Assembly (NCBI GenBank): GCA_951406725.2
Contig: OX597831.1
Location: forward strand, 62,186,001 to 62,250,000
DNA length: 64,000 bases
Direction of reading: 5' to 3'
Source: Octopus vulgaris
Lineage: Eukaryota
Shown here: positions 37,101 through 49,722 of the stretch, piece by piece
How positions within the stretch are numbered: position 1 is the stretch's first letter
Layout: every line of letters starts with the position of its first letter
Notes under the pieces: model-generated
What the model was told of the DNA's origin: nothing
The model's database searches: none
What the model saw: the letters and a program-made list of their open reading frames with translations, nothing else
Program-made: the position numbers and the translations under genes

Positions 37101-38355
37101 GGCCTTTCCCGGGATTAAGTTACGATTATTAAGCTAATCAAGTTCCTTATTTCAAACCAAACTAAGTAATATCGGCGTCAAATTTGGGCAGAATCCGTTT
37201 GATGAAAATGTTTGATGAAAATGTGTGATTAAAATGTTTGATAAAAATGTCTGATGAATATGTTTGATGAAAATGTTTGGTCGACATGTATGATGAAAAT
37301 GTTCGATGTAAATGATGAAAATGTCTGGTCAAAATGTTTAATGAAAATGTGTGAAGAAAATGTTTGATGGGAATATTTGATGTACATGTTTGATGAAAGT
37401 GTCTGATGAAAATGTTCGATGAATATGTTTGAAAATGTTTGATGAAAATGTTTGATTAAAATGTTTGAAGGTAATGTCTGACGAAAATGTTTGATGAAAA
37501 TGTTTGATGAACATGTTTGATGTAAATATCTAATGAAAATGTTTGATTAAAATCTTTCATGATGAAAATGTCTCTATTAAAACAACTGATGAAAATGTCT
37601 GATGATAATGTTTGATGAAAATCTTTGATGAATTTGTGTGATGAAAATGTCTGATAACAATGTTTGATGAAAATGTTTTATGAAAATGTGTGATTAAAAT
37701 GTTTGATGAACATGTCTGATGAATATGTTTGATGAAAATGTTTGGTCGACATGTATGATGAAAATGTTTGATGAATATATTCGATGAAAATGATGAAAAT
37801 GTCTGGTGAAATAGTATGATGAAAACGATGATGAAAATGTGTGAAGAAAATGTTTGATGAGAATATTTGATGAAAATGTTCGATGAATATGTTTGAAAAT
37901 GTTTGATGAAAATGTTTGATGATAATGTGTGATGAAAATGTTTGATGAAAATGTCTGGTGAAAATGTTTGATGAAAATGTTTGATGAAACTGATGAAAAT
38001 GTTTGATGAAAATGTTTGATGAAAATGTTTGATGAAAATGCTTGATGAAAATGCTTGATGAAAATGTTTGATGAAAATGTTTGATGAAAATGTTTGATAG
38101 AAATGTCTGATGAAAATGTTTGATGAAAATGTTTGATGAAAATGTCTGATGAAAATGTCGGGGGAAATAGTGGAGAAGATATGATATTGCTGTGGGGTCG
38201 ACCTAGGGAAAAAGTTAAGATATTTTTGCCGATGACACTCCCCGGTCCTTAAGTAAGGCATGTGTAAAATTTGAATGAAATTAGTTGTGTAGTTCTCAAG
38301 TTTTAGGGAAACACACTGACAGACAGACAGACAGACACACATTCTCAGTTTTATA
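37098..38355 (-). mobile_element. Non-autonomous Helitron-like element carrying an internal 13-bp minisatellite
   Basis: Minus 5' TATATAAAACTGAGAATGTGTGTCTGTCTG resembles the 33064-33825 element end; (TA)n on both sides. Confidence 0.6.
37197..38158. repeat. Minisatellite (TTTGATGAAAATG)n, about 70 degenerate units
   Basis: Direct inspection; variant blocks are duplicated (37200-37450 resembles 37665-37920). Confidence 0.95.
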
Positions 38356-41761: not shown

Positions 41762-42305
41762 TCCTCTACCACCATCATTATTATCACGAACATCGACTGC
41801 AAAGTTATCTTCATATGAATATAAATCCAAATGACCAAAATTAATATGAAAATCACCATTTATTCGCTTTAGACGGGATCTAAATGCCATTTAGACAGTA
41901 TCTACGTGTCTGCTCCATACAGCTAACTCAAAAATCTAAAGGACTCAAAAATCCTCCTCCAATTATAAGAGAAGTTGGTCACGACTATAGCATGCAAAAT
42001 AATCGGTTTTTACTGTTCAGGTCAAAGCAGGTGTTAAAGTCTCATTCGAACACTATCACCAATATCTTCAGCGTCAAAGGCAACTCCTGTCTTGGCGTCA
42101 TCAATTTGTACTCTTATACTTTTGACTATTTTTTCTCATGATAGGCGTAGGAGTGGCTGTGTAGTAAGTAACTTGCTTACGAACCACATGGTTCCGGGTA
42201 CAATCGCACTGCGTGGCACCTTGGGCAAGTGTCTTCTAGTATAGCCTCGGGCCAACCAAAGTCTTGTGAGTGGATTTGGTACATGGAAACTGAAAGAAGC
42301 CTATC

Positions 42306-42357
<52 letters not shown>

Positions 42358-43135
42358 ATGAAAATAGTAATGCAATACGAGAGTATTGCTTTCCAGTAAA
42401 GAATAGCCCGTGAGGGTAAAATTATACATAAAAGTAAATAAATGGTACAACGAAGCACCGGTATTTACTGGAAAATAGCGAACGTAATAAATACGACGCT
42501 AATGTATAGCTTCACTGCGCATGTACTAGCTTTTTCATTTTTCAGATGTTCTTCCTAGAGGTAAGACAATTTTTTTCATGTTTGTTGCACACACGCATCT
42601 TTACTAGTACATACACAATGAAGCTATACATTAGCGTCGTATTTATTACGTTCGCTATTTTCCAGTAAATACCGGCACTTCGTTGTACCATTTATTTACT
42701 TTTATGTATAATTTTACCCTCACGGGCTATTCTTTACTGGAAGGCAATACTCTCGTATTGCATTACTATTTTCATTGAAACTGTTTCACTGTTCTCGCTC
42801 TCTTAACGTGTTAGCGTTCAGACGAGTGTACTGGCATAGATGTGGCAACATTTGAAATATTGTTGAGGTTTATGCAGCTGATGAGGATAAATCAAATATA
42901 CTTTTGGCATTCGTATTTTGAAAAATCCGAAACCGGTACTGCATTATCCGTTATCTAGGTTTTTCATTTTTCAGATGTTTTTCCTAGAGGTAAGACAATT
43001 TTTTTCATGTTTGTTGCACACACGCATCTTTACTAGTACATATGCAGTGAAGCTATACATTAGCGTCATATTTATTACGTTCGCTATTTTCCAGTAAATA
43101 CCGGAGCTTCGTTGTACCATTTATTTACTTTTATG

Positions 43136-43138
<3 letters not shown>
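42358..43138 (+). mobile_element. Partial tandem plus inverted element with intact hammerhead, family F10
   Basis: Inverted arms 42358-42529 / 42604-42775; direct repeat 42526-42710 / 42955-43138 (period 429); no ORF. Confidence 0.88.
42872..42944 (+). ncRNA. Canonical minimal type I hammerhead ribozyme
   Basis: ATGCAG-CTGATGA-GGAT(..TCAAATATAC..GTATTTTGA..)ATCC-GAAA-CCG-GTA-CTGCAT: 6-bp stem I, intact core, stem II GGAT/ATCC, ACCGGT palindrome, GUA cleavage triplet at 42936-42938. Confidence 0.88.
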
Positions 43139-43168
<30 letters not shown>

Positions 43169-44403
43169 ATGTATGTACGTATATATGTGTTTATATGTTT
43201 GTGTGTCTGTGATTGTCCCCCTAACATCGCTTAACAACCGATGTTGGTGTGTTTACGTCCCCGTAACTTAGGGGTTCGGCAAAAGAGAGCGATAGAATAA
43301 GTACTAGGCTTACAAAGAATGAGTCCTGGGGTCGATTTGCTCGACTAAAGGCGGTGCTCCAGCATGGCCACCATCAAATTAATAAAAGGAGTAAAATAGT
43401 AAAAGAGTAAAGACTCCATTCACAGACCAATATTTTAACTCTACTAATGGAGAAAATACTAAGGAACTTAGAGTCCTTCATAACTGCATACTAATCGTTA
43501 ACTCATTAGTCCTCAGTGACCGAAGCTGCCATCTTTTGCGAATATTCAAGTTGAGTGTTTCCTCTCCAAGCAGATTACGAGTTGCCATGAAAGACGTCTG
43601 GATTTTTCAACAACTCGTAACAGATCTGCTGTTAATGATGTATATAAACCATTCAAAAACCTTAACCGTGGTCTTATTGAAAGCTAATGGTTTCGTAAAT
43701 GAATGTGGGTGGAAACCTCATTCATCTATTTTATACATACTTTTATGCACCCAGCTACTAATGTAGTCGTTAACTGTAATGATATAACACCGGTAATAAA
43801 ATACTATAAATTTTGATTCTCAAAACAAAAATTTTGAAAAAAGTAGAGAAAGGACGGAACACCCACGTTATTCATAGCCTTCGGGAATTTTACTACTTAG
43901 TAAATTTAAAGTAATTAGCTGAACATAATATTAGCAATATATCTTCTATCAAAACAACTAAATGGCATTTTATGTATGATTTTCGATTAGTTATTTATGT
44001 TTCATTCATTTGCTTTTTATTTAAGAAATAAAAATGCATTTTGAATTATAGTTTCTCATGCAATTATGTTATTAATGTAAGGTTGTTATATACTGCAAGT
44101 AAAACTTGATTCTAAGGACAAGATTTAATGTGTAATGCTAACTAAATCTGTACAGTTTCTCTACACGATCGCAAATGTCAATTCACTTTTACAAGCGTTG
44201 TAAAATATCGACCACGGCATTTCAGAGACCCTTATAGATGTATTACTAAGTATGCTACTAATATTACGTTATACAGTTTCCTCATCTTATAGAGACTTTG
44301 GCAAAATGCATTCACACTGATTTAAAATGGCTTTTAGAACACATTATTTTAAGAAGAAACGGGAATTTGCGCATAAATCTCCTAACATTAATTATAAAAT
44401 AAT

Positions 44404-48379: not shown

Positions 48380-49722
48380 TCAATGCCAATCTCTTCTTAT
48401 GAGGATGGCTGGATGGTAGCCTGAGCCATGGTCCGTTGAAGCTGGTCTTTAAAACGGAATTTGGGACCTCCTCTGGGTCTTGTTCCGATTGCAAGTTCCC
48501 CGTAGATCATGATTCTTGTGAGACAAGAGGGCTCTATACGCTGGTTCTGATCTTCCCAGCGGTGATGATGGCGAAGAATGACAGTGAGGCACGGCGAAGT
48601 GATTAGTAATGAAACACGGCGAAGAACCTCATTGTTGGTACTGTGATCCTCCCATTGTATGTTGATGATCTGTCGTAGCTTTGATCGCTGGAAGCTTGAA
48701 GTCACGATGGTACAGCGTCTAAGTCTCACAAGCGTAGAGCAGAGTTGATAGGACTATAGGACGGAAGACTATGATCTTTGTCCGGAAGGTCAACGCCTGA
48801 TTGAACAATATACAATAGCTGAGTCTTCCAAAGGCGCAGTAGGCCGCCCAAATCCGGTTCTCCACATCCTTTTCACGTTGGTGTCTTCGAAAGGGTACTT
48901 CCAAGGTATGTGAAGTGCGAGATTGAACAGTCCACCATTCAAGTGATAGCGCATGTTGATGGAATGTGAGTCTAGTGTGATTTCATTGAACATGGCGGCT
49001 ATGTACAAAGAGAAACAGGTTGGTTCCAGGTCACATCTTTGCTTAAGACCCCCAGTGATGGGAAACTGGTTTTCGAGGGCATTTTGATGGCATACCCTAC
49101 CCACCATGCCGTCGTAGAAGGAGAGAACCAGAGCAATGAAGTCTTCCGGACAACCAAACCGGCAAGGAAGGCCTATATTGCAGGACGGGCGACCGCGTCA
49201 AAAACTTTCTTTAGATCCCAGATGAACATTGCAGGCTGTTGTTGTTCCTGACTCTTCTCCTGAAGTTGAAGGGTACAAAAGATCATGTCAATTGCGTAGA
49301 GAAGGGCGAAAGCCACACTGGGACTCAGGATGGACGTCTTCGCGAGGATGAGGCGATTGAGTAGGATACGGGCGAAGATCTTACTTGCAATACTCAAGAG
49401 TTAGATGCCCGGATAATTGTTGCAATCAAACTTCTCGGTCTCCTTTCTTGTGATGATAGTTGCATGGCGGAAGTCGTTCGTGGGGTTCTTGCTTTCCTAG
49501 ATCTTGAGGATAAGGAGCATCATATGATTTCTCAGCTCCGGACCTCCGGGTGCATAAAACTCAAACGGGATGTTGTCTGGTCCTGAAGCTTCCTCCGGCT
49601 TCATGCGCGCAAGTGCGTTGTTGAACTCCTGGCGTGAAGTCAGCAGGGACATCCAATGACGGAACGGTAGCTGTGGAGTGTTTTGGAGGACATCGTCAGG
49701 ATCGTGTGAGTGGTCGTTGGAC
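48380..49722 (-). mobile_element. RTE-clade LINE RT region, decayed
   Basis: ASGPDNIP, KIFARILLNRL, AIDMIFCTLQLQEKS, DLKKVFDAV, GLKQRCDL.P..FSLY, LSTLLYACET, IMIYGELAIGTRPRG. Confidence 0.9.

Follow-up and report, generated by a model that had tools for sequence, protein, structure and literature searches.

The locus described here lies in a 64,000-nucleotide stretch of the Octopus vulgaris genome (assembly GCA_951406725.2, contig OX597831.1, positions 62,186,001 to 62,250,000 of the forward strand), hereafter referred to as the window. Positions in the repeat unit are numbered such that u1 corresponds to window position 42526 with a period of 429, and thus the ribozyme spans u347-419 with its predicted cut after u413 (42938). 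The features of the locus are as follows.

42307-42357: left (TA)n target microsatellite, downstream of a high-copy dispersed repeat at approximately 42140-42305
42358-42529, minus strand: inverted arm, u79-250, 97% complementary to 42604-42775 and without a ribozyme
42526-42529: head-to-head junction, a four-nucleotide palindromic microhomology, CTAG, common to both arms
42526-42954, plus strand: the single full 429-bp period, u1-u429, non-coding, 36% GC
42872-42944, plus strand: predicted type I hammerhead ribozyme, on the basis of a generic type I descriptor and covariation
42872-42877 and 42939-42944, plus strand: stem I, ATGCAG/CTGCAT, 6 bp
42878-42884, plus strand: core, CTGATGA
42885-42928, plus strand: stem II, GGAT/ATCC, with a 36-nt extended hairpin
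42929-42932, plus strand: GAAA
42932-42937, plus strand: ACCGGT palindrome (helix III/loop 3), the predicted dimerisation site of a double hammerhead
42936-42938, plus strand: GUA triplet (GUC in another subfamily), with the predicted cut after 42938
42955-43139, plus strand: second, partial period, u1-u185, its 3' end (…TTTTATGTAT) at the "short" start site u185
43140-43200: right (TA)n/(TG)n target microsatellite

As can be seen, the insertion has a single ribozyme in its 1.43 periods and none in the 172-bp inverted arm, such that the preliminary description, which placed a hammerhead once in every 429-bp period, was overstated. The direct repeats (42526-42710 and 42955-43139, 96% identical at a spacing of 429) and the inverted 5' copy are essentially as it reported, and the unit is indeed devoid of open reading frames, the longest ATG-initiated ORF in a doubled unit being 49 amino acids. 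The 3' end of the inverted arm (…TTTTCAT) corresponds to the "long" start site, u250, and adjoins the (TA)n tract, within which no target-site duplication can be discerned. Compared with the majority of its closer relatives, the locus copy differs at 11/429, 5/185 and 2/172 positions in its three parts and at none in the core. On the basis of these differences it is no fresh insertion.

The insertion is flanked by two dispersed repeats, at 42140-42305 and at about 43200-43400, the former with 4460 candidates genome-wide. Both are presumably SINE-like; a search of the window with ARAGORN revealed no tRNA genes. Elsewhere in the window are a 13-bp minisatellite (GTTTGATGAAAAT) of 75 copies at 37197-38158 and, at 25437-27493 and 48790-49197, ORF fragments that by eye resemble decayed LINE endonuclease and reverse transcriptase.

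The sequence and coordinates of the hammerhead, along with its stems, core, palindrome and GTA triplet, are as originally described. The CUGANGA and GAAA motifs, the UH and stems I to III in the type I order are all present, and a generic type I descriptor applied to both strands of the 64 kb matched only 42872-42944. The term "fully canonical" is correct for the core, every nucleotide of which is in place, but not for helix III, which contains one A-U base pair capped by a CCGG loop (or two base pairs with a two-nucleotide loop). Stem II consists of four base pairs followed by an internal loop and a nine-base-pair extension. Given that helix III measures just one to two base pairs and is capped by a palindrome, the ribozyme is predicted to require a partner and to cut only in pairs. 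Indeed, a short helix III of such kind has been described as impeding monomer cleavage and acting as a dimer (Cervera & de la Pena 2014, PMC4209133). Two monomers lacking helix III have a computed energy of -25.2 kcal/mol, and the double hammerhead one of -35.1 kcal/mol; the minimum of an unconstrained co-fold is another structure, at -39.0 kcal/mol.

A search against Rfam gave no match at the gathering thresholds. The best hammerhead match was to HH9, with 22.9 bits versus a gathering score of 52 and an E-value of 0.0067, and the score is probably lowered by the long stem II insertion. Taken by itself, a score below threshold would be in keeping with an ordinary repeat or local duplication that resembles a hammerhead by chance. 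Covariation refutes this explanation, which we regard as scarcely credible. Examined were 49 copies (42 distinct), of which 27 were selected by BLAST, two were found otherwise and 20 came from the sample of 180 matches anchored just 3' of the cut. Paired cells amount to 93% in the ribozyme structure versus 28-40% in slid controls across the 49 copies. Among the 42 distinct rows, the first pair of stem II is A-U in 13, G-C in 11, G-U in six and unpaired in 12, and the fourth is U-A in 26 and C-G in 14. One subfamily (L201) has its stem I changed to ATGTGG/CCACAT. An old copy, 63% identical (L211, G000:C3:166980080-166983137), has the stem I AATCTAG/CTAGATT and an eight-nucleotide palindrome, ACCTAGGT. 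Compensatory substitutions have occurred in both stem I and stem II, the palindrome is preserved, and control patterns return zero matches. The ribozyme fold has evidently been maintained under selection, with both stems as well as the palindrome affected; the compensatory changes represent a handful of lineage events rather than independent counts per copy. A comparison of lineage-variable sites in the core with those in the rest of the unit (0/28 versus 41/401, P = 0.054) was left unused because selection of the sample had depended in part on the core.

The genome searched amounts to 2.8 Gb in 227 contigs. The ribozyme region has 830 candidates genome-wide, and the 40 of these that were scored display identities of 91-100%. 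Searches with exact patterns gave 25, 185, 180 and 231 matches and none for the reversed controls, the exact-core pattern accounting for at least 185 intact cores. The conservation across genomic copies on which the preliminary description staked its reading is thus borne out by these cores and by the covariation. The family is dispersed and free of ORFs, and long tandem arrays are not its arrangement: the longest direct array found is 840 nt, and the searches gave none with two full periods. Sequencing runs bearing the labels of four organisms also have family sequence in their contigs. The same is true of contigs from four runs presumed to be RNA, in which neither strand, ends nor circles can be discerned and which speak neither for nor against expression.

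At seven places in the genome, two cut sites are separated by a single period, and at three of them (L031, G000:C5:111698700-111699450; L082; and L083) there are two whole cores in the same orientation. These three are candidate source loci, and they contain the two or more tandem hammerhead units by which retrozymes are recognized; the window locus does not. The unit itself has the retrozyme attributes, namely 429 bp of non-coding sequence, neither LTR nor ORF, a GC content under the 45-50% limit and a highly self-paired monomer. Other short hammerheads are found at L072, L073, L075, L076, L077 and L078, those of L077 and L078 near broken Penelope-like element (PLE) ORFs. Their stems I and II differ from those of the unit and their ACCGGT palindrome is identical, although a common palindrome would presumably be insufficient for cross-cleavage in the absence of a matching stem I.

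The retrozyme reading put forward at the outset is accordingly sound for the family, with its hundreds of copies and its covariation, and fails for the window locus with its single cut site. There, a tandem transcript was supposed to be cut into 429-nt monomers. Release of a monomer needs two cuts, and so the locus copy with its one ribozyme cannot provide it. In addition, helix III is too short for a stable monomer, and the transcript would also fold into a 172-bp hairpin. Even with a core that is intact and free of private changes, it is very improbable that the locus itself functions as a tandem retrozyme.

The combination of direct and inverted copies within (TA)n is a Penelope-type insertion footprint, which the preliminary description missed. 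To define it, a sample of 92 loci was used, containing the 100 matches listed of 180 and anchored just 3' of the cut. Of 122 pieces, 105 end at u176-189 or u245-253, and 81 of these 105 run on into (TA)n. The 5' ends are scattered, the copies thus being 5'-truncated, and 22 of the 92 loci show a head-to-head inversion. The two fixed sites, u185 and u250, are positioned about 200 and 266 nt downstream of the cut, and hence reverse transcription would appear to begin at fixed internal sites and not at the cut itself. A G to A change at u181, confined to the terminal period in 10 pieces, is consistent with a (TA)n primer overlaying the RNA.

The two arms of an insertion do not use the sites at random. 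We counted 40 two-armed junctions among 126 distinct loci, and in 29 of these both ends fall at the two sites; in the remaining 11 one arm ends elsewhere. The pairing is u185 with u250 in 28 of the 29, u185 with u185 in one, and u250 with u250 in none (binomial P = 5e-8 versus independence, two of the 28 being copies within one duplicated locus). All 28 u250 arms extend past u185. Where there is one arm alone, it ends at u185 in 76 of 92 cases. At one locus (L081, G000:C6:71051500-71058000) a single two-armed insertion is present three times via local duplication, and its middle copy contains an additional segment in which the sequence skips from u363 to u415, adjoining the cut site.

A fixed 3' end, an optional tail, 5' truncation, partial tandems, 5' inversions and a microsatellite target are thus all observed in the octopus family. 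Partial tandems, 5' inversions, tails and a microsatellite bias are likewise part of PLE anatomy as set out by Craig et al. 2021 (PMC8557442). For the anole element Poseidon PAc, Frangieh et al. 2024 (PMC11167929) describe reverse transcription that initiates internally at two sites past the hammerhead cut, an AT-rich target, extension of both nicked strands and a predicted protein dimer, in all of which but the last the octopus copies offer a parallel. The PAc start sites, according to the same account, lie in an AC-rich loop, are not homologous to the target and show no strand difference in vitro, whereas those of the octopus unit are U-rich, end in AU, have a short homology to (TA)n and differ between the two arms.

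The identical footprint might suggest that the locus is simply what 5' truncation has left of an autonomous PLE, its 3' end with pLTR and tail, there being no separate non-coding element. Hammerheads at two PLE loci (L213 and L215) contain the same GAAACCGGTA followed by CTG, and another (L077) ends in TTTTCAT plus (TA)n. Upstream of u1, however, copies pass into u429, for up to 840 nt, and never into an ORF, and a tblastn search with PLE ORFs returned separate flank fragments at unit-bearing loci and none in the window. The unit is without the RT plus GIY-YIG ORF between pLTRs that characterizes an autonomous PLE. We consider this explanation largely refuted and quite improbable.

Two PLE families were considered in the search for a mobiliser. 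The first, L062-L067 (for example G000:C5:1039500-1046500), is young and autonomous, with the closest copies about 99% identical. Its ORF1 of 479 amino acids, without a Pfam match, overlaps an ORF of 781 amino acids in which GIY-YIG scores above the cut-off and RVT_1 just under it. The latter also contains a CX4CXXC linker, the motif given for Neptune (PMC8557442). In the terminal repeat, which ends in (TA)n, there is a motif resembling a hammerhead, its core being a variant (TTGATAA … GAAACATGTTA) and its palindrome ACATGT. There is no DNA similarity between this family and the 429-bp unit. The second family (L073, L077/L213 and L078/L215) is broken and has a short hammerhead with the GAAACCGGTA and CTG motif of the unit and, as at L077, a TTTTCAT/(TA)n end. 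These two features are all that the unit has in common with L073, L077 and L078, a small part of the PLEs of the genome having been compared, and this family is a candidate relative only. Local alignments of the unit with seven candidate hammerhead or PLE loci gave z-scores of -1 to 4, and a BLAST search against 40 GIY-YIG loci yielded one match, an independent insertion. A putative chimeric insertion with the 781-residue PLE at L067 was rejected: some 600 bp separate the copy from the PLE, other repeats intervene, and the copy has a (TA)n end of its own. Similarly, a GIY-YIG fragment near L080 is separate from the copy there. In the O. vulgaris repeat paper (PMC13282606), 31 Penelope-like families are listed as recently active.

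The nature of the template was addressed through the extent of the copies. The cut site is read through (past u412) in 94 of 100 sampled pieces, and the RNA template was therefore continuous across it, either as a religated circle or as uncut RNA. Ends at the cut are not clearly enriched above background: 5 of 99 5' ends fall in the six-nucleotide window there versus a mean of 3.3%, and 25% of 297 windows are as high. Among the 100 listed copies anchored at u18-42, seven depart at u412-416, a count that overlaps the 180-match sample and lies partly at TA microhomology. An apparent drop in contig depth near the ribozyme was rejected as a contig artefact because 86 of 100 listed copies anchored at u18-42 continue through u407, as counted by eye. 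In the second passage, five of the 10 pieces that reach at least t = 416 come to an end within u415-u429, immediately on the 3' side of the second cut site. This hint, slight and post hoc, would point to an RNA 5' end or to a stalled reverse transcriptase.

Differences between periods in 44 pieces recur 32 times in the same direction and 30 times in the opposite one, and thus neither a fixed dimeric master nor period-specific inheritance is seen. Rare alleles occur in both periods in seven instances (five of them in L083) versus 101 in one period, and in both arms in 12 versus 140 in one arm only. The alleles of L083 speak for a circle, and the preponderance of alleles in a single period or arm weighs against the proposed cycle. 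In favour of a circle, too, a linear template copied without overlap would have to exceed 840 nt for 13 of the 27 two-armed loci. The simplest account of these data is a circle, the probability of which falls a little short of even; two linear RNAs or strand displacement can also provide an account. The cut-to-cut monomer folded as a circle has an energy of -106.9 kcal/mol versus -79.9 ± 4.7 kcal/mol for 60 shuffles (z = -5.7, 59% paired), a good fold that does not distinguish between circle and line.

There is a real possibility, somewhat below even, that the same non-autonomous PLE is copied from uncut linear RNA, either two molecules or template jumps between molecules, no circle being made and the ribozyme acting elsewhere in the cycle or simply being carried along. 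The read-through of the cut site is as such a template would give. In the anole system, Frangieh et al. 2024 (PMC11167929) report that insertion is normal when the ribozyme is mutated and that uncut RNA predominates as substrate in vitro. The second-passage stops, few and noted post hoc, are those expected of a linear RNA cut at its upstream ribozyme alone. The maintenance of the ribozyme fold implied by the covariation, the copies longer than one period that bear no fixed dimeric master signature, and the failure to find an array of two full periods all argue against a linear template; two RNAs per insertion would cancel the argument from length. Ribozyme activity is not to be assumed, since of nine Xenopus retrozyme dimers reported in a preprint, one was cleaved in vitro and eight were not (Li, Clavereau & Pollet 2026, 10.64898/2026.07.22.740005).

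Taken together, the locus is most probably one of hundreds of dispersed 429-bp non-coding hammerhead repeats that constitute a likely non-autonomous PLE, or non-LTR retrozyme, copied in trans by the reverse transcriptase and GIY-YIG endonuclease of a PLE, and it is itself a likely dead end. In the cycle that we infer, with regard to cleavage, circle and enzyme alike, a rare copy with two ribozymes would be transcribed, and its two motifs would pair via ACCGGU to form a double hammerhead from which a monomer of 428-429 nt would be excised and likely ligated into a circle. A PLE protein, likely a dimer, would then nick both strands of (TA)n and prime cDNA at the two fixed internal sites, u185 and u250, one per DNA end. 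The cDNAs would pass through the ribozyme, often for more than one period, and stop at variable points, after which they would be united head to head by microhomology, or one arm alone would survive.

On the basis of its sequence, the octopus family is likely a member of the non-LTR retrozymes with a predicted ribozyme. As in the metazoan retrozymes described in PMC7229834 (Cervera & de la Pena 2020) and in the preprint cited above, the unit is short, non-coding and low in GC, with one type I hammerhead per period, a palindromic and weak helix III like that of axolotl HHR_Amex1, a highly self-paired monomer and co-occurrence with PLEs. At 429 nt it is longer than the approximately 170-400 nt given in PMC7229834 and inside the range of 51-972 given in the preprint. 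Unlike those retrozymes as described there, nearly all octopus copies are dispersed with one ribozyme and none was found to have two full periods; the preprint counts single-ribozyme copies as monomer derivatives. The octopus family also targets (TA)n strictly and has two internal start sites that are fixed, features of which we noted no description in those two accounts. With the EN+ PLEs, as presented in PMC8557442 and PMC4209133, the family shares 5' truncation, partial tandems, an inverted 5' copy, an optional tail, a microsatellite bias and a dimer-type hammerhead. It differs from them in having no RT/EN ORF, a tail of 65 nt rather than 30-40, and a long stem II (44 nt) rather than a minimal one.

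The class of element is already known, and the family, although real, is ordinary in kind. Literature on cephalopod hammerheads and octopus Penelope-like elements revealed no such family by title or abstract start, and supplements or repeat libraries may list it. The words "octopus" and "cephalopod" are absent from the main text of PMC7229834, as is "ribozyme" from that of the O. vulgaris repeat paper (PMC13282606).

The role of the hammerhead in PLEs and the origin of their tandem and inverted insertions are called open in the accounts of Craig et al. 2021 (PMC8557442) and Frangieh et al. 2024 (PMC11167929). The octopus family is of value as a test system in this regard, in that hundreds of copies of a short unit record the start sites of reverse transcription, the site used by each arm and the continuity of the template across the ribozyme cut. 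A bolder and more doubtful proposal, which we put forward tentatively, is that these copies record a PLE dimer carrying out rolling-circle reverse transcription of a ribozyme-made RNA circle from two sites 65 nt apart, with one active site at each end of the cut (TA)n. If this were true, the "tail", the partial tandems and the 5' inversions of PLEs would be explained by one mechanism, and the role of the hammerhead would be to make the circle at rare two-ribozyme source loci.
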